A DNA stretch of 64,000 bases from positions 800,001 through 864,000 of the forward strand of contig CAVQBA010000004.1 of NCBI GenBank assembly GCA_963710605.1. The letters are read 5' to 3'. Shown here one piece after another: positions 2,500-37,919 of the stretch. Numbering within the stretch: the first letter of the stretch is position 1; every line of letters begins with the position of its first letter. The position numbers and the translations under genes were made by a program. The notes beneath the pieces were generated by a model. The model ran no database searches and was not told the DNA's origin. It saw only the letters and a program-made list of their open reading frames with translations. The DNA comes from an uncultured cyanobacterium (GTDB lineage: Bacteria > Cyanobacteriota > Cyanobacteriia > Cyanobacteriales > Cyanobacteriaceae).

Positions 2500-3111
2500 G
2501 TAATATTCTTAATATGATGACCAAGCTAATATCCTTTTTAGTGTTATTAAAAAGATAAAATTATAGCGAATGGCGGTTATTGAGCTTGTTCAATTAAGTA
2601 AAATATCGATTTTTTTGAGTTTTGCTATGTTGATTTAGCTTAAAAGAGAAAACTTAGATAATCAAGATAGATAATAAAATTTTATCTGATTGTCTTATTT
2701 ATTCTTTTTATTCTCGTTATTGTGTAGGTTATTGATTCTGATTAAAGAACTTGTATCTATAGCTATATCATTTGTTGCTGATGATTTTAGGCTGAGGATT
2801 TAGCTCATACCATCCGTGACAAATTACTCTGTAAATTATTAATAATGCTGTATTTATTGCTTAGATATTATTAATAAATCAATTAGTAGTATTTGTTCGT
2901 TTAATCGCTAAAAAATATTTGTATAAAATTAAAATATTAAAGACAAATAATTAAAATTAGTATCAATTACTAAAGTAATTTATTGACTTAATTGTAAATA
3001 TTTAAATAGTCAGACATAATGGAGTATTCATACAGTATATTTGGCTAACAACAGATTCTTTCATCGCTAATTATTCACTAATCAACATCACTTTTTTTGG
3101 GGTAGAAAAAG

Positions 3112-3492
3112 ATGTCTAGAAGAAAGAAAAAGTTCACTTGTGGTCATATAGGTTACGGAAAAGTTTGTCATAAATGTGTGCAAAAACAAACTCTTAAACA
3201 GCAGATAAAGAATGAGAAAAATGCGTGGAAAGATAGTTTTGCTAACGATATAATTGATTTAAGGTCTTTACCTAAAAATGTGGTGGTTAAAGCTAGACAA
3301 ATTATACAAGATATCCAAAAAAATACTTGCTATACTTATTTTAGAGGAAAAAGACTCAGACACGATCGATTTATTATTAGTATTCCCGTTACACGGCATT
3401 ATCGCTTAATTTGTCGAGATCATGGTAGTCTAGTTGTTCCTGAAGCTGTTGTCTCTCACGAAGATTATAATGTTTGTAAACCGGGGGGTTAA
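3112..3492 (+). CDS. Small basic protein with N-terminal Cys/His (putative zinc) motif and RelE/ParE-like C-terminal region
   Basis: CGH-x6-CHKC motif; IISIPVTRHYRLICR..VSHEDYN resembles RelE/ParE-fold strands (inference). Confidence 0.55.
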   Translation: MSRRKKKFTCGHIGYGKVCHKCVQKQTLKQQIKNEKNAWKDSFANDIIDLRSLPKNVVVKARQIIQDIQKNTCYTYFRGKRLRHDRFIISIPVTRHYRLICRDHGSLVVPEAVVSHEDYNVCKPGG

Positions 3493-30002: not shown

Positions 30003-32630
30003 CTAAGGTAAACGCACGATAATAACAGTACTATCAAGCTTTTGAGCGATTTGCTCGGGTATATTGCCCGATATTGCTTGTTTTAACAAACCATCACGAG
30101 AAGCACCGATAATAACCAATTCTGAATGATGTTTTTGGGCAGTATGAACGATCGCACTGACGATAGAGTCTGAACAAACTGGTAAAAGATTGACCTCAGT
30201 ACGAACTAATTTACCTAATTTTTTAGCCGCTAAATGTAAATCCTTAACATCTAAATTGAGTTTATTTTCTTGCCGATAAACTTTTGTTAGCCATACAGAA
30301 GGTCTTTTTTCGGGTTGATAAACGTTGAAAAACGCAGGTAACAACTTCAAACCTTCTTGAATATTTGGTCCTCCTGAGAAGGGGATAACACAAGTACCCT
30401 CAGCTTCTGTATTATAAGGATAATATTGCTTATTTAGACCTAGCTTGACTAAAATTAATTCGCAAGGTGCTTTATTGATTAAACTATCAATTACATGAGA
30501 GAAAATAAACTCTTGAGAGCGAGATTTTGGCTTCCAACCCACAACTGCTAAATTGATATGATGACTTTTAATTAAATCTAATAATACATCAGTACGCTGG
30601 TGTGCCACAAATATTTTTGTATGGACTGATATTTTCGCCTTTCTACCCATCCTTTCTAAGGTGTGCATGGTATGTCGAGCAGAGCGAGTATCTACTGCTG
30701 TGGTATGAGTATCTTGATACTTAGGAATTTTAATAATACGAACAAATTCGATTTCATATTGATAATGAGAAGCGATCGCTTTAGCTATTTTAAATAAACT
30801 CTGAAAATCATCATCTTCGGCTACTGGTACTAAGATACGACCTTTTCCCGTAGCAGGAGAAGAAGTTTTATAAATTAAATAGGAAGAAATAGAAGCCACG
30901 GAAGTTTCTGCTTTTAATTCATTTACCTCCGCTCGAATAATATCAGTACGAGTGATAATGCCGACTAATCGATTATGACTCATCACAGGTAAACGAGATA
31001 ACTGATAACGATTAAGTAAATACATAACATCACTTAAATTAGCTTCCTCAGAAATAACGATCGGATTTTTAGTCATAATTTGACTAACTTCAATCAGTCT
31101 TTTATCTGTAGGAATTTTAGTTAAATCAGACTGAGTGACAATCCCTACCAAACGCCCTTTTTCCATTACAGGAAATCCACGATGATGAGAATTAGTCATC
31201 ATTTCTAACAAATCAGATGCAGATAGATGAGGGTTAGTTGTTTCTACTTTTGACTGCATCACATTTGACGCTTTTAGATGAGCCAGAAAAGAAGTATTCG
31301 ATTCTTGATTTTCCTCTAAATCAATACCCATATTTGAGAGTAAATATTGATATAAAGAGCCACTTTCTACTGTCTCGGCACTAATATAAGCCACCGCACA
31401 AGTAATCATTAAAGGCAAAACTAAATTAAAATTAGCATTTAACTCAAACACAATCATAATGGCAGTAATTGGCACTCTAACAATTCCTGTAAATAATGCA
31501 CCCATACCGACTAAGGCAAAAGTTGTGGTAGCATCTGTACCAGTAATCATTGCTTCTATGTCACCAACTAAATACCCTAAAGCCGAACCCATAATCAAGG
31601 CAGGTGCAAATAATCCTCCCGGTGCTCTTGTACCTGCGGCTAAAATACTTAAGATATAATGAGCAAATAAAACTAAGGCGGTTTCTTTTGTACTTAATTC
31701 TCCTCTAATTAAAAAATCTTTTAAACCGGCATTATCCCAGAAAAAAGAGGGTAGCGAAGCGATTACTAACCCTGAGATTAATCCTGCTAGTCCAATTCTG
31801 ACACCTAAGGGTAGATTAATTCTTTCGTTTAATTTAATACTCCACAAGACACTACGATTAAAAAAAGCACCTAATACTCCGGCGATGATTCCTAAAATTA
31901 AATAGAAAGGTATATCAGTGAGAATAAACTTTAACCCTTCTATATCGATAATTTGATTCGGTATTTGTAGATTCGTTGACTGCAATAATAAAGAAACAAC
32001 AGCCCCAGTAAAAGATGCTACGATCGCTGTTTCTAAAGTAAGATTAGATATATCTTGCATCAACTCTTCAATCATAAACATAATACCAGCAATCGGAGTA
32101 TTAAACCCTGCGGCTAATCCGGCGGCGGCACCTGCGGCTATCATCTGTCTTTTATGTTCAGGAGATGTGGGGACAAAACGAGTTAATTCCCCTGCAATAG
32201 CCGCCCCGATATGTACTGTGGGGGCTCTTCTACCTAAAGGTAATCCTGCTCCTAAAACCAAAATTGTGCCGATAATTTTGACAATAACTACCCGAAAAGA
32301 TAAAGGTATTTTTAAACGATTCAAAGCCGCTTTTACTTGTGGTATTCCTCCTCCTGCGGCACTTGGCTCAAAATACTCGACAAAAAAACCAGCAATCGTA
32401 CCTAAGACTAAGCCGAATAACGGTAAGACAATTCTGGCATCCCATTGATTAGTTAATTGTAAACGATAGCTTCCGAGAAAACTGATTCCTTCTTTAAGTA
32501 ATAATGCCGCTAAACCTGAAAAGATACCAATCAAACTAGCTTCAATTAAAGCATAACGAGTGGAAATGGAATTTCGGGCAAAATGTCTAGTTTTTAACCA
32601 ATTACGAAAACGACGAATGATGAATAACAA
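30003..32630 (-). CDS. ClC chloride channel/antiporter with CBS and USP-like domains
   Basis: GGGIP, GRRAP, GLFAP, CBS pair, C-terminal USP-like domains. Confidence 0.92.
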   Translation of the reverse strand: MLFIIRRFRNWLKTRHFARNSISTRYALIEASLIGIFSGLAALLLKEGISFLGSYRLQLTNQWDARIVLPLFGLVLGTIAGFFVEYFEPSAAGGGIPQVKAALNRLKIPLSFRVVIVKIIGTILVLGAGLPLGRRAPTVHIGAAIAGELTRFVPTSPEHKRQMIAAGAAAGLAAGFNTPIAGIMFMIEELMQDISNLTLETAIVASFTGAVVSLLLQSTNLQIPNQIIDIEGLKFILTDIPFYLILGIIAGVLGAFFNRSVLWSIKLNERINLPLGVRIGLAGLISGLVIASLPSFFWDNAGLKDFLIRGELSTKETALVLFAHYILSILAAGTRAPGGLFAPALIMGSALGYLVGDIEAMITGTDATTTFALVGMGALFTGIVRVPITAIMIVFELNANFNLVLPLMITCAVAYISAETVESGSLYQYLLSNMGIDLEENQESNTSFLAHLKASNVMQSKVETTNPHLSASDLLEMMTNSHHRGFPVMEKGRLVGIVTQSDLTKIPTDKRLIEVSQIMTKNPIVISEEANLSDVMYLLNRYQLSRLPVMSHNRLVGIITRTDIIRAEVNELKAETSVASISSYLIYKTSSPATGKGRILVPVAEDDDFQSLFKIAKAIASHYQYEIEFVRIIKIPKYQDTHTTAVDTRSARHTMHTLERMGRKAKISVHTKIFVAHQRTDVLLDLIKSHHINLAVVGWKPKSRSQEFIFSHVIDSLINKAPCELILVKLGLNKQYYPYNTEAEGTCVIPFSGGPNIQEGLKLLPAFFNVYQPEKRPSVWLTKVYRQENKLNLDVKDLHLAAKKLGKLVRTEVNLLPVCSDSIVSAIVHTAQKHHSELVIIGASRDGLLKQAISGNIPEQIAQKLDSTVIIVRLP

Positions 32631-32664
32631 TTGATAATTGATAATTGATAATTGACAATTGACA
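32627..32664. repeat. Heptamer tandem repeat ATTGATA/ATTGACA
   Basis: Direct reading. Confidence 0.85.
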
Positions 32665-32753
32665 ACGAGTAAATTATTGAGCTGAGAATCAAGAATTCAC
32701 AGTTTTTACATTTATTCTACATTCTATATTCTACATTCTAAGTTTACTCATTC

Positions 32754-33224
32754 TTACTTTGTTTCTCGGTGATGGGTAAACCACGATCGAATTAAACCAC
32801 GACAAGACTCTTCACAAATCCCGGCAAATACTTGCAAACTATGATTAGAAGCATTACTATCAGGTAGATTGAGTACTGTCCTAATCGCTCCTGTTTTGTA
32901 GTCATCCAGACCATAAATTAGAGTTTTTAATCTTGCTTGAATAATTGCACCTGCACACATCGGACAGGGTTCTAAAGTTACATATAAACTACATTTATTT
33001 AATTGCCAAGTAGCTAATTTTTGACTTGCTTTTTGAATTGCTAAAATTTCAGCGTGGGCGGTAGCGTCTTGATTTTGTTGTTTTTGATTGTAAGCAGTAG
33101 CAACCAAATTATTTTGCTCATCGATTATTACCGCACCGACAGGTATTTCTCCTTCTTTTCCTGCTTGTTGAGCTAAATCAATCGCTTTTTTCATCCAATA
33201 TTGATGACGTAACAACTCTTCCAT
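32754..33224 (-). CDS. tadA: tRNA adenosine(34) deaminase
   Basis: GEIPVGAV, HAE, TLEPCPMCAGA. Confidence 0.95.
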   Translation of the reverse strand: MEELLRHQYWMKKAIDLAQQAGKEGEIPVGAVIIDEQNNLVATAYNQKQQNQDATAHAEILAIQKASQKLATWQLNKCSLYVTLEPCPMCAGAIIQARLKTLIYGLDDYKTGAIRTVLNLPDSNASNHSLQVFAGICEESCRGLIRSWFTHHRETK

Positions 33225-33399
33225 TAATTATCAATTAAGTCGGTAAACAAAATTAATTGTATGTTAGTTTAATCTTTAGCTTGACGACTTTTGAAAACCG
33301 CACCTCCAATGTAATTAATATTGAAGCTCGATCGTTTTTTGTTAAAATAATATTTTGTAATTAAAGAAAAATCAATTAATGAAAAGGAGTGTTTAATTT

Positions 33400-33741
33400 T
33401 TGGCTAAACTATCTCCTCAAGTATTAACTGCCATTTTTAGTTTACAAAGACAGTTAATTGAACTTATTGCTGAAACAAAAGTAACTGAATTTAGTCTTTT
33501 TGAACGTTATGGTGAAACAGAAGAAACATTACCTGAATTGGAGCAAATTCAGAATTGTTTAGAAAGATTAAAAAACCCTTATTCTCGTCTTCATACCTTA
33601 ACCCTTAGAATTTATGAATATTATCTGGTAGCTCCTAGTGCTATTGTAGAATTATTAAATGAAACCATAGAACAAGCTCAAATCTCAGCTAATGTAGTGG
33701 CAGCAAGTCTATCTGAAACCAAAAGAAATTGGAGATTATGA
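33400..33741 (+). CDS. Hypothetical all-helical protein (113 aa)
   Basis: TTG start with AAGGAG RBS; overlaps next gene by ATGA. Confidence 0.8.
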   Translation: MAKLSPQVLTAIFSLQRQLIELIAETKVTEFSLFERYGETEETLPELEQIQNCLERLKNPYSRLHTLTLRIYEYYLVAPSAIVELLNETIEQAQISANVVAASLSETKRNWRL

Positions 33742-33929
33742 TGAACGATCGATTTTCTGATATTCCCGAACAAAAAGTAAGAACAAAAAGCGTGGCTAAA
33801 TGGCGAGAAGCTTGTCGTAAATTAGATTTAGTTACCTTAAAATTTGATGAATTAATTGCCATGATTGAAGTTGATTTACGTCATCAAAGTTTGGAGAGAC
33901 TTCAAAATAAAATTGAATTGAAGGATTAG
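33738..33929 (+). CDS. Hypothetical small helical protein (63 aa)
   Basis: GGAG RBS at 33731, ATG overlapping upstream TGA. Confidence 0.7.
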   Translation: MMNDRFSDIPEQKVRTKSVAKWREACRKLDLVTLKFDELIAMIEVDLRHQSLERLQNKIELKD

Positions 33930-34064
33930 CTCGATCGTCTTTTATTTTAAAGGGAAAAAATGGTAAGATTCAGAAAAAAAGAGTACGATCGCTCGGTGCG
34001 TAGCCAATTATGTTAGCTTCCCAATGATAAACTGATTAATTTATTCTCTGAGGTATCTCGCTCG

Positions 34065-34128
34065 CTGCTTGTTGAGCTAAATCGATCGCTTTTTTCATCC
34101 AATATTGATGACGTAACAACTTTTCCAT
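34065..34128 (-). pseudogene. Duplicated 5' end of tadA (64 bp direct repeat of 33161-33224)
   Basis: 62 of 64 bases identical; encodes MEKLLRHQYWMKKAIDLAQQA then diverges and stops. Confidence 0.92.
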
Positions 34129-34218
34129 ACATTATGCAAAATAAATACTAGAAACCAAGTTATTAATTTTAACGCTATTAAACGATCGTACTATTATTAA
34201 TTTTAACTATTATTATAT

Positions 34219-34497
34219 TTAGAAAATATCGGGAATATAAAATTCTCCTAGTGTAGGATATAATTCAACAAATAAAAGATCTGGATCCATAATAGTACCT
34301 TCTGGTATTCGTAATTTAAAACAAATGAGCCAACCTTCTATTCTTTTAGATAAACATTTTTTGGCTTTACCTTCTAAATATTTAACAAAGTCTAATTTTA
34401 ATGTATCGTCTATATTAGATTTTTTAAGAATCTTTCGAGAAACTATTACTACATCTTCTAAAGAATTAACCTTTCTAATTTCTTCGGCTAAAAGCAT
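34219..34497 (-). CDS. Hypothetical protein (92 aa)
   Basis: ORF only. Confidence 0.55.
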   Translation of the reverse strand: MLLAEEIRKVNSLEDVVIVSRKILKKSNIDDTLKLDFVKYLEGKAKKCLSKRIEGWLICFKLRIPEGTIMDPDLLFVELYPTLGEFYIPDIF

Positions 34498-34630
34498 TAT
34501 ATTCGTTCTTTAATGTCCTAAATTGTTTTGCTGATATTTTTTATTAGTAAGGATAACATACGATCGATATTATTAAGCATTAACCTTCTTTTATTATTTG
34601 ATTAATTGTTGTAAAGAGTAAATAAATATT

Positions 34631-35320
34631 TTAAGGAACAATTTCTACTAATATTCCTGTATCGAGAAAATCATAAATTTCATCTACATCATTATTTTTG
34701 AGAGAGATACATCCTAACGTCCAATTCGATTTTCTTTCAATTAAAGAATCACTTTCATTTGGCACTCCATGAATACCAATTTCACTACCAATAGGAAAAA
34801 CCCATTTAAGATTTCCGTTTGATTTAGCTTGAAAATGTTCTCGCCAAGATTCTGCCCTTGGGTAATCTAACCAGATAAATTTTGACCAACTCTCATGTGG
34901 ATATAAATCTCTGACATAGTAAATTCCTTCAGGAGTTTTTCTATCTCCTTCACGAAGTTTATCTCCTGTAGGATTACCACCAAAGACAACAGGATAAGAT
35001 TTTACGGCTTGAAGATTGTTAAAAATGGTCAGTTTATATTTAGATTTCTCAATCAAAATTGAAATATTTTTGACTTCATCTTCCTGATTTATTAAATTTT
35101 TTAGTGGTTGTTGATAGTTTAATAAATCATCGCTATTACCAGAAAGTGGATGTACCGCTTTTTCAGCTTGACAAAATAGACACAAGAATGCAGGTATTTG
35201 CTTAGGAGACATCAAAAAACCAAGTCTAAATAGCAAAAAATAAACACTGCCACTTGCTCCCAAAATCAATACTGTTAAGGTTAAAACGATCGATTTTTTA
35301 ACAGTAAATTTTAATCTCAT
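34631..35320 (-). CDS. L,D-transpeptidase (YkuD) family protein
   Basis: GDRKTPEG, IGIHG, WTLGCISL catalytic motif. Confidence 0.92.
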   Translation of the reverse strand: MRLKFTVKKSIVLTLTVLILGASGSVYFLLFRLGFLMSPKQIPAFLCLFCQAEKAVHPLSGNSDDLLNYQQPLKNLINQEDEVKNISILIEKSKYKLTIFNNLQAVKSYPVVFGGNPTGDKLREGDRKTPEGIYYVRDLYPHESWSKFIWLDYPRAESWREHFQAKSNGNLKWVFPIGSEIGIHGVPNESDSLIERKSNWTLGCISLKNNDVDEIYDFLDTGILVEIVP

Positions 35321-35434
35321 CTAGATTTTTAAATATAATTTAAATTCAAGGTTATATTTATAATATATTACCAAAGCTAACCAATGAGCTTTATTTCAAT
35401 GAACTACTAAATAGATTTTTAAAATATAATTATA

Positions 35435-35794
35435 TTATTTTTCAATCCGCTTTAATTGAGATATATGTTCGATAATTTTATCATCTGTAATTTCTCCATC
35501 AATATAAGGAGACGAAAGTTGTTGCAATACATACCACATTGATTCATAATTATCGCATTTTTTATCGTCTTCCCAGTCAGGAGAAATATAAATATCGTTA
35601 AAAAGAAGAAAAGAAGACCATTTTGATAATTCTTGAGTAGTGACTTTTTCTTCTAAACATTTTTGAAGCATAGTAATAACGTGTTGAGGACGAACAATAA
35701 TTTCTTCTTTATAAATAATCATTATCACATCTGTTTTTTTTACTTCAGAAATCGAGATAAAACCATTTAAAATTTGTTCGTAAAAATTATTCAT
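35435..35794 (-). CDS. Hypothetical acidic protein (119 aa)
   Basis: ORF only. Confidence 0.65.
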   Translation of the reverse strand: MNNFYEQILNGFISISEVKKTDVIMIIYKEEIIVRPQHVITMLQKCLEEKVTTQELSKWSSFLLFNDIYISPDWEDDKKCDNYESMWYVLQQLSSPYIDGEITDDKIIEHISQLKRIEK

Positions 35795-35854
35795 TTATCA
35801 GATGAATGAGGTTTAGGTAGAATTTAAACTTAATGAAAAAGTATAATTTTACCC

Positions 35855-35880
35855 GTAGGGGTTGAACATTGTTCAACCCT
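35855..35880. repeat. GTAG-type palindrome downstream of uvrB
   Basis: GTAGGGGTTGAACATTGTTCAACCCT. Confidence 0.6.
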
Positions 35881-35927
35881 CTAATTCAATTCAATAAACC
35901 TTTTAACCAAAATAATATTATTCGTAA

Positions 35928-37919
35928 TTAATTAGCAAGTAATTTAGAACGTAATTGTTTAATTTTATCTCGATATTCTGCCGCTTCTTCATATTCTAAA
36001 TTTTTAGCTGATTCTTGCATTCTTGCTTCAAATTGTTTAATTAAACCCGGTAATTTATCAAGAGTAATATTATCAATTTGTTCGACTACTTGTTCTAATT
36101 CTTGTTGATTTAATCTTCGAGAAATATCTAAGAATTCTAAAATTTTATTAGTTGATTTTTTATTAATAGAAGTTGGAGTAATATTATTTTTAATATTATA
36201 TTCTGATTGTATTTGCCGACGACGATTAGTTTCCTCGATCGCTTTTTCCATACTATTAGTAAAATTATCAGCATACAAAATCGCCCTTCCATCTACATGA
36301 CGTGCCGCTCTACCTATAGTTTGAATTAACGATCGCTCAGAACGTAAAAAGCCTTCTTTATCAGCATCAAGGATAACTACCAAAGAAACTTCAGGTAAAT
36401 CTAAACCCTCTCTGAGTAAATTCACCCCAACTAAAACATCAAATTCACCCGCTTGTAAACTTTGTAAAATTTCAATTCTTTCTATTGATTGAATCTCTGA
36501 ATGTAGATATTGAACTTTAATTTCTCTTTCTTGTAAATAGTTAGTTAAATCCTCCGACATTTTTTTAGTTAAAGTAGTAATCAAAACCCTTTCATTTCGT
36601 TTTACTCTAGTTTTAATTTCCCCTAACAAGTCATCAACTTGCCCGTGAGTTGGACGAACATCTATTTCTGGGTCTAAAATACCAGTAGGACGAATAATCT
36701 GTTCATAAACATGACCATCTGATTGCTCTATCTCCCAATTGCTCGGAGTTGCGGAAACAAAAATACATTGATTTACCTTCTGCCAAAATTCATCAGCTTT
36801 TAACGGGCGATTATCAGCCGCACTAGGTAAACGAAAACCATAATCAATCAAAACTTTTTTACGAGCTTGATCACCATTGTACATACCTCTAATCTGCGGT
36901 ACAGTAACATGAGACTCATCTACTACCAATAACCAATCATCAGGAAAATAATCAACTAAACACTCAGGTGGTTGTCCTTTTTTCTTACCCGTCAGATGGC
37001 GAGAATAGTTTTCTACCCCGTTACAATAACCAACTTCAACTAACATTTCTAAATCGTAACGAGTTTTTTGTTTTAGTCTTTGTGCCTCCACTAATTGACC
37101 TTCTTTTTCCAAAAAAGCCAATCTTTGCTCCAATTCGTCTTTAATATTAACTAAAGCAGTTTGTAATCTATCTTCAGGTGTGACAAAGTGTTTAGCAGGA
37201 TAAATGTTAATATACTTTAATTCCTCAATTAATTCGCCTGTAACGGGGTCTAAAAGAGAAATAGACTCGATTTCATCTCCAAAAAATTGGACTCTCACAA
37301 CCCTATCTTCGTAGGCTGGGACGATTTCTAAAACATCTCCTTTAAGCCGAAATGTACCACGAGATAAGGCAACATCGTTGCGAGAATATTGTACATTAAC
37401 TAAGTCACGAATCAACTCACGAGGATCGTACTCTTGTTCTATTTCTAGAGGGATTGATGCTTTAAGGTATTCAATCGGCATCCCTAAGCCATAGATACAA
37501 CTGATAGATGCGACTACGATAACATCATCTCTTTCAAATAACGATCGAGTTGCCGAGTGACGTAACATATCAATTTCGTCGTTAATCGAAGATGTTTTTT
37601 CGATATAAGTATCGGTAACGGGTATATATGCTTCGGGTTGATAATAATCGTAATAACTGACAAAATATTCGACTGCATTATCAGGGAAGAATTGTCTTAA
37701 TTCATTACATAATTGAGCGGCTAAAGTTTTGTTGTGGGCTAAAACAAGAGTTGGTTTTTTGTGTTGAGCAATGGTACAAGCGATCGTATATGTTTTACCT
37801 GTACCTGTAGCACCAAGTAGAGTTTGATAAGGATTATCCTGTTGTAATGATTTTACTATTGAATCGATCGCAGAGGGTTGATCTCCTGTCGGGGAAAATG
37901 GTGCTTGTAGATTAAACAT
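35928..37919 (-). CDS. uvrB: Excinuclease ABC subunit B (start ATG 37919)
   Basis: [28 protein letters not shown]-terminal UVR domain. Confidence 0.98.

Follow-up and report, generated by a model that had tools for sequence, protein, structure and literature searches.

A mobile two-gene cassette, tentatively of toxin–antitoxin type, between two copies of the tadA start in an uncultured cyanobacterium

The essential tRNA-editing gene tadA of an uncultured cyanobacterium is separated from a second copy of its own first codons by an insert of 840 bp (833–840), the core of which is a cassette of approximately 590 bp (33339–33929) that comprises a promoter/leader region and two small open reading frames, ORF1 and ORF2. 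The locus lies within a 64,000-nucleotide stretch of contig CAVQBA010000004.1 (positions 800,001 to 864,000 of the forward strand), hereafter the window, to whose numbering all unprefixed coordinates refer; the host chromosome is AT-rich (32.7% G+C). Copies of the cassette occur at other loci in other cyanobacteria, and its two products form a complex in structure prediction. Our tentative preference, held at somewhat less than an even chance, is for a selfish toxin–antitoxin-like (TA-like) cassette that entered by recombination, with homology to tadA as the anchor; the toxicity, its neutralization, the roles of the two proteins, and the route of recombination are parts of this account that we infer. 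TA-like cassettes and insertion with duplication are both known kinds, of which the present case is a new variant. The principal features of the locus are as follows.

32754..33224, minus strand: intact tadA-type tRNA adenosine deaminase gene, 156 amino acids (MafB19-deam, 1.8e-42; dCMP_cyt_deam_1, 1.1e-33)
33161..33231, minus strand: repeat copy A, joined to intact tadA and spanning about −7 to +64 of the gene; codon 3 encodes E
33232..33338, no strand: left flank of the insert, 107 bp, unique and not shared with other cassette copies, now the tadA upstream region; holds the first AGCTCGATCGT at 33325–33335
33339..33399, plus strand: conserved cassette leader, with a −10-like TGTAAT/TATAAT box, the AT-rich near-palindrome TCAATTAAT, and GGAG before the TTG start
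33400..33741, plus strand: ORF1, 113 amino acids, TTG start
33738..33929, plus strand: ORF2, 63 amino acids
33928..33946, plus strand: second copy of AGCTCGATCGT(C)TTTT(A)TT, overlapping the ORF2 stop codon at the end of the cassette homology
33930..34064, no strand: right flank of the insert, 135 bp, unique
34065..34135, minus strand: repeat copy B, the tadA "ghost," with codons 1–21 of the gene; codon 3 encodes K
34212..34241, minus strand: top promoter-like site of the region, TTTATA-18-TATAAT, matching the consensus at 10 of 12 positions

The 64-bp duplication of the tadA start reported in the preliminary description, with its two mismatches, was confirmed. Codons 1–21 (33161–33224) agree with 34065–34128 at 62 of 64 positions, ungapped extension (33161–33231 versus 34065–34135) gives 67 of 71, and a single gap carries the match to about −10 of the tadA ATG, for 75 nt at 93%. 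The repeat ends sharply on both sides: the best local alignment beyond it scores 19, against 18.0 ± 2.6 in 300 shuffles, 102 of which reach 19. The 71-mer occurs at these two sites only in the 3.93-Mb genome, which has one full-length copy of tadA plus a 28-amino-acid match to the ghost. The ghost translates as MEKLLRHQYWMKKAIDLAQQA, then leaves the tadA frame and passes into unrelated sequence; it is presumably attached to the old tadA upstream region. The glutamate at codon 3 of the intact gene (MEEL) is found also in the tadA genes of four of nine relatives. One mismatch (33180 versus 34084) reads AATCAATCG in intact tadA and AATCGATCG in the ghost, where it creates a CGATCG site. A continuation of tadA homology past the repeat into 33930–34064, direct or inverted, was considered on account of a 27-nt, 70% inverted match and rejected, as it did not rise above shuffled sequences.

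The insert carries, as had been described, ORFs of 113 and 63 amino acids within its 840 bp, overlapping by 4 nt (ATGA at 33738–33741), a layout by which ORF2 is, to judge from the sequence, translationally coupled to ORF1. The leader (33339–33399) that precedes them may be a promoter or operator. A profile search with ORF1 retrieved 265 cluster representatives (50% identity) at E ≤ 1e-3, nearly all of about 113 amino acids, and the family conserves the motifs GET, RIxExQP, and a C-terminal WxL. At least 44 relatives of ORF2 are known from Geminocystis, Microcystis, and Crocosphaera, annotated only as "hypothetical protein." The ratio of nonsynonymous to synonymous substitution (dN/dS) in ORF1 is 0.09–0.20 against six copies, the seventh being saturated, which shows a real gene under purifying selection. 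Neither ORF has a fitting Pfam, NCBIfam, or PADLOC family or a sequence match in the PDB; the ESM Atlas returned unnamed cyanobacterial clusters only, with no usable named match; and a limited literature search by homologue identifiers and on the topic of TA systems in cyanobacteria found no description of the family.

Comparison with other copies delimits the mobile unit. A DNA search of 40 relatives found 33339–33929 in G010 and G018, which belong to another genus, with 88% identity, and the cassette is 80% identical to a copy in a further genome, G323; in alignment with all three, homology begins at the −10-like box of the leader and stops at the ORF2 stop codon. Of 401 genomes of the order, representing 142 genera, 23 (in 18 genera) carry the cassette, with matches confined to positions 115–713 of the query 33225–34064, and in 24 metagenome loci homology is confined to 33343–33916. 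None of the copies checked adjoins tadA: the two are 1.3 Mb apart in G010 and on separate contigs in G018, and none of the 24 metagenome loci has tadA in the flanks that were fetched. Since homology is limited to 33339–33929, the mobile unit is the promoter plus the two genes. The preliminary description had proposed a repeat-bounded unit of 904 bp, and this must be given up, as only the smaller segment is conserved elsewhere, at other loci and without tadA. The possibility that the insert flanks are dispersed repeats was also rejected, their matches elsewhere in the genome being of 25 nt or less.

The cassette is much younger than its hosts. Synonymous divergence (dS) of ORF1 is 0.39 to G010 and 0.32 to G018, far below the values of 1.28 for uvrB and 2.46 for tadA between the host genome and G010, and this indicates horizontal transfer. 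Distant pairs (35–37% identity) are carried on plasmids of Planktothrix agardhii and on a conjugative plasmid of Gloeothece PCC 7822; no match to ORF1 was found in 50,697 phage records.

Structure prediction gives ORF1 as a bundle of three helices (residues 6–37, 44–74, and 80–111) with a predicted local distance difference test score (pLDDT) of 93.7, and ORF2 as one long helix that packs on ORF1 helices 2 and 3. The two were co-folded, on alignments built for this analysis, with an interface score (ipSAE) of 0.87, the best of three controls reaching 0.01, with agreement between runs in at least 72% of contacts and a partner pLDDT of at least 77; of 157 solved complexes 116 attain this mark, and of 215 mismatched pairs 2 do. 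ORF1 and ORF2 are thus predicted to bind each other, the ORF2 helix completing a four-helix bundle. ORF1 and ORF2 are also joined in frame in nature, at L033 (180 amino acids) and L066, and the model of the L033 fusion (pLDDT 92.6; predicted template modeling score 0.69) is a three-helix bundle followed by one 56-residue helix (residues 124–179). Fold matches of the ORF1 and fusion models to designed bundles, syntaxin Habc, and vinculin/talin were set aside as generic, and no inference was drawn from them.

The pair is inherited together; the preliminary description had called for a search for co-occurrence and variable loci. Among 25 loci in genomes, the pair is intact and adjacent at 19, fused at 1, and frameshifted in ORF1 with ORF2 intact at 1; at 3 only ORF2 is present, and 1 gives no protein match. 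The 24 metagenome loci, which were found through ORF1, comprise approximately 15 intact pairs, 1 cut by a contig end, 1 fused, and approximately 7 damaged, mostly in ORF1 (the counts, from tblastn and simple ORF tracing, are approximate). Paralogues number from zero to six per genome in 21 relatives, 9 of which have a match, some with stop codons. The host genome itself has three divergent pairs of the same 4-nt-overlap layout: that at tadA and two others, at C4:728990 (L074:2491–3035) and C1:312792 (L075:2493–3022), which show 35–37% identity to ORF1; the neighbors are, for one of these, an HNH-like gene and, for the other, era on one side and a cobyrinate-synthase-like gene on the opposite side. 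Two genomes (G179 and G063) have, at L017, L018, and L036, an intact ORF2 homologue by itself, directly downstream of an NdhD/F-type antiporter-like gene, which suggests a retained orphan partner. At L016, in G323, repeated intergenic segments of 37–320 nt with a terminator-like hairpin (1048–1368, 2079–2115, and 2809–3252) stand between the cassette and a neighboring MazF gene, a layout that resembles a cassette array.

This behavior invites comparison with type II TA systems (higBA, mazEF, relBE). Like them, the cassette consists of two small co-oriented genes, overlapping by 4 nt, whose products are predicted to form a tight complex, and like them it is patchy, multi-copy, horizontally transferred, plasmid-borne, and found in TA-rich islands, with one partner often decayed. 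It differs in lacking a toxin fold or family and a DNA-binding antitoxin domain, in that both proteins are purely helical, and in the existence of natural fusions. Neighbors within 1.5 kb include PIN, MazF, HepT/MNT, ParE-like, XisI, DUF6932, Uma2, XamI, DUF4351, or DDE genes at 13 of the 25 loci, a count that has no matched control and comes from genomes in which TA genes are abundant. Patchy and multi-copy occurrence, horizontal movement, carriage on plasmids, TA-rich neighborhoods, and predicted binding are the grounds for the TA-like reading, in which ORF1 would be the likelier effector and ORF2 its neutralizing partner, because ORF1 decays or is lost while ORF2 survives. The earlier suggestion of an undescribed TA or defense pair stands in part: the two genes are co-inherited, uncharacterized, and TA-resembling in behavior, and they match no toxin or antitoxin family or fold.

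The manner of insertion is not peculiar to tadA. Comparison of the genome with itself gave 71 local pairs of direct repeats, mostly repeat proteins or tandem paralogues, and among the remainder at least four further inserts have the anatomy of that at tadA, with gene-end duplications of 113–253 nt, 90–95% identical and all sharply bounded, around inserts of 2.1–2.9 kb. They are the following (both repeat copies are given, then the start-to-start distance).

L070, C6:354292–354455 and 356353–356516: 5′ part of a SWIM-finger gene; 164 nt, 92.7%; 2061 bp; carries HigB with a partner, and RelE/ParE with a RelN-type antitoxin
L072, C2:201575–201827 and 204420–204667: 3′ end of an OmpR-type response regulator gene; 253 nt, 90%; 2845 bp; carries MazF–MazE and a PEP-CTERM protein
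L069, C5:300163–300394 and 303053–303284: 5′ part of an ABC ATPase gene; 232 nt, 95%; 2890 bp; carries two unknown ORFs and a DDE transposase fragment
L068, C4:1298592–1298704 and 1301235–1301347: first 113 nt of a 254-amino-acid ORF; 113 nt, 92.9%; 2643 bp; carries an unknown protein of 442 amino acids

No recombinase family was detected in these four inserts by Pfam or NCBIfam, and a family search of the tadA insert likewise found no integrase or transposase, in agreement with the preliminary description. The tadA insert is one of a class in which accessory cassettes, TA modules included, lie at the end of a gene behind its ghost, with repeats of variable length and no recombinase. The picture of a mini-islet put forward at that stage has to be changed, in that the event is not unique: there are at least four more integrase-free gene-end-duplication inserts, two of them with classical TA genes, and their presence in the same genome argues for a general recombination route rather than dedicated machinery.

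The insertion most probably required no integrase. DNA in which the cassette adjoined a segment with homology to the start of tadA would have recombined with the chromosome, either by a Campbell-type single crossover of a circular molecule or by homology-facilitated illegitimate recombination (HFIR) after natural transformation; either would duplicate the anchor and leave tadA whole. We favor anchored recombination because it is the most economical route for recombinase-free gene-end inserts. In both known processes one stretch of homology anchors foreign DNA without an integrase, and a single crossover duplicates the anchor; the anchor in tadA is by comparison short, at only about 71–75 nt. 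Published outcomes of HFIR are mostly insertion with deletion and not, as at tadA, with duplication. The primary papers on these mechanisms in transformable bacteria are reportedly those of De Vries and Wackernagel (2002), Meier and Wackernagel (2003), and Prudhomme et al. (2002). A transposon, insertion sequence, or miniature inverted-repeat transposable element does not fit the insert, which has no terminal inverted repeats at its ends, is single-copy in the genome together with its cassette, and is flanked by a 71-nt duplication. We know of no transposase that fits a duplication of this length.

The available text of Touzain et al. 2010 (PMC2884548) reports that 10–18% of small variable bacterial genome segments are flanked by direct repeats, and the tadA insert resembles those segments in being a variable insert of less than island size with direct repeats. 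It differs in that the genomes treated in that text are non-cyanobacterial and in that the repeats are there read as deletion substrates, with no description of gene-end restoration.

Several observations weigh against the reading of a TA-like cassette inserted by anchored recombination. With respect to the proteins, family and PDB searches revealed no likeness to any known toxin, antitoxin, or defense protein, and no DNA-binding domain was detected in ORF1 or ORF2 (Pfam; HTH, RHH, AbrB, Phd/YefM). Fold searches gave generic helical bundles only: a VIA search with the ORF1 model reached a best Z of 12.1, within the expectation for helical bundles, and Foldseek (pdb), which had been proposed together with the co-fold at the outset, returned nothing at E ≤ 1e-3. 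In a toxin–antitoxin pair natural fusions would be out of the ordinary, the metagenome locus L047 has a 5′-altered ORF1 without ORF2, and two of the three pairs in the host genome lie among housekeeping genes; to these may be added the uncontrolled neighbor count given above. With respect to the insertion, the flanks (33232–33338 and 33930–34064) have no relative in any sequence set searched, and neither an empty tadA site nor a donor locus was found among the relatives, none of which is close, the tadA of the same-genus G001 being 75% identical. The comparison of tadA loci that had been recommended showed no pair beside tadA among the copies checked and yielded no empty site; G001, whose genome is 67% complete and whose tadA has different neighbors on both sides, is not informative.

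An alternative leaves the account of the insertion unchanged and takes the pair to be an accessory heterodimer without harmful effect (a regulator, an adaptor, or a scaffold, for example), spreading and decaying as a dispensable gene would. We regard this as possible, though doubtful. Besides the lack of a toxin or antitoxin family or fold match and the natural fusions, the lone ORF2 after an NdhD/F-type gene suggests a host role, and two paralogous pairs stand among housekeeping genes. Against such a heterodimer stand the coupled two-gene layout, the copy number of zero to six among relatives, the pseudogenes, the copies on plasmids, the TA-rich neighborhoods, and the bona fide TA genes carried by the sister inserts.

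A different origin for the insert, as the remnant of a site-specific integrative element, appears rather unlikely to us. The recombinase would have been lost or would act in trans, the attachment site attB would lie in the tadA start, the element would have supplied a surrogate tadA 5′ end, and later deletion would have reduced it to 0.8 kb, in the manner of a cis-mobilizable element (CIME). Such elements classically leave behind a restored gene and, on either side of the foreign DNA, direct repeats of the gene end. In e14 and phage 21 in icd and in integrase-less CIMEs, slightly diverged gene-end repeats of tens to hundreds of nucleotides flank foreign DNA and the gene is intact, e14 in icd being an example of gene restoration. 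The tadA insert shares with these the flanking direct repeats that include the end of the target gene (67 of 71 positions); the four differences between the copies are expected if one arrived with the element, and eight PF00589 recombinase matches exist elsewhere in the genome. None of the eight, however, lies within the 64-kb window, and no recombinase is present in the tadA insert. The insert is only 0.8 kb long, and its cargo is found at many other loci, where both tadA and such ends are lacking. At least four analogous inserts, with repeats of 113 to 253 nt, also have no recombinase family, so that five independent losses would be needed. No island was seen in the 1.5-kb flanks of tadA in nine relatives, a shallow survey in which ORFs were listed for G001 only.

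The repeat might instead have arisen locally, from a staggered break of approximately 75 nt in the tadA start that captured a fragment and was filled in, leaving a long duplication of target-site type; the sharp ends of the duplicated segment and the varying repeat lengths of the sister inserts, as random staggers would give, agree with this. We nevertheless judge it very improbable, since copies that differ by 6% (5–10% in the sisters) would require long divergence afterwards or separate origins, and we know of no bacterial process that produces target duplications of 70–250 nt. A misjoin of repeat and insert in the assembly, for which one might cite an incomplete genome (84.9%) in seven contigs, is scarcely credible, given that the repeat is just 71 nt long with copies differing at four positions, that the flanks of repeat and insert are all unique and lie inside a 1.42-Mb contig, and that the cassette is a genuine conserved unit.

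The preliminary description had also remarked that the two genes are tightly bracketed by AGCTCGATCGT. The bracket is real, with copies at 33325 and 33928 and an extended match of 17 of 19 positions. As a pair of element ends it was rejected: it is not conserved in other copies of the cassette, the 11-mer occurs four times in the window (three on the plus strand and one on the minus strand), and it is built on the over-abundant CGATCG, of which there are 133 occurrences in the 64 kb. CGATCG does recur at the 3′ end of the cassette. It is found within 30 bp of the ORF2 stop codon (2–13 nt after it) at 11 of 42 loci, against 2.4 expected from local density and against 9 of 142 and 150 of 2521 control ORFs, figures to be read in the knowledge that the loci are mutually related and that the 5′ window was picked after the data had been seen. 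The 11 are the present locus (33927–33938) and ten others, e.g., L005, L006, L016, L023, L026, L029, L030, L056, L059, and L063. We treat the site as a lead: it may serve for recombination or uptake, or it may belong to a 3′ element. CGATCG is the core of the cyanobacterial palindrome HIP1, and according to the accessible parts of two reports (bioRxiv 10.1101/2024.09.10.611283; PMC13756078), natural transformation in cyanobacteria, and possibly homologous recombination as well, is more efficient with HIP1 sites. Sites with the CGATCG core likewise bracket the cassette at tadA and might have had a role in its insertion.

The insertion gave tadA a new upstream region, as had been surmised: the intact gene is now preceded by 33225–33399, head-to-head with the cassette. 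Minus-strand promoter-like hexamers occur in the area of the left flank at 33375→33347 and 33345→33317, in a region where the number of promoter-like sites (13, against 11.0 ± 2.7 in shuffles) is not above chance. The best of them, 34241→34212, lies upstream of the ghost and is possibly the original tadA promoter, which would now be aimed through the ghost and antisense across the cassette toward tadA.

Other features of the vicinity may be mentioned briefly. The region between a ClC-type channel gene and tadA contains tandem units of 7 and 14 nt at 32613–32680 and 32713–32740 (TGATAAT/TGACAAT; TATTCTACATTCTA twice), and the first of these blocks has matches of 85–100% at dozens of places in many related genomes, which marks it as one of a family of short dispersed repeats. 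Upstream of the tadA ghost, an ORF of 92 amino acids (34219–34497, minus strand) belongs to no family and has two copies of approximately 70% nucleotide identity on other contigs of G001. Rfam gave no match within 31000–36500.

TA and defense systems are abundant in cyanobacteria and poorly charted, and the pair is a concrete candidate for a new type of either. The most far-reaching interpretation, which we hold to be unlikely, is that of a new cyanobacteria-wide, all-helical TA or defense family, with a three-helix effector and a one-helix cap, that enters genomes by a general, integrase-free, gene-end-anchored recombination of transformed DNA, perhaps aided by CGATCG/HIP1; if it were true, ghost gene ends would be a genome-wide marker of recent cassette gain. 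The tadA insert and the four sister inserts bear on how small cassettes spread without a recombinase of their own, and sharply bounded gene-end duplications could be a searchable footprint of such insertions. The tadA gene itself, an essential gene parted from its presumed promoter, is a natural example of how the expression of a core gene may be rewired by an accessory element.

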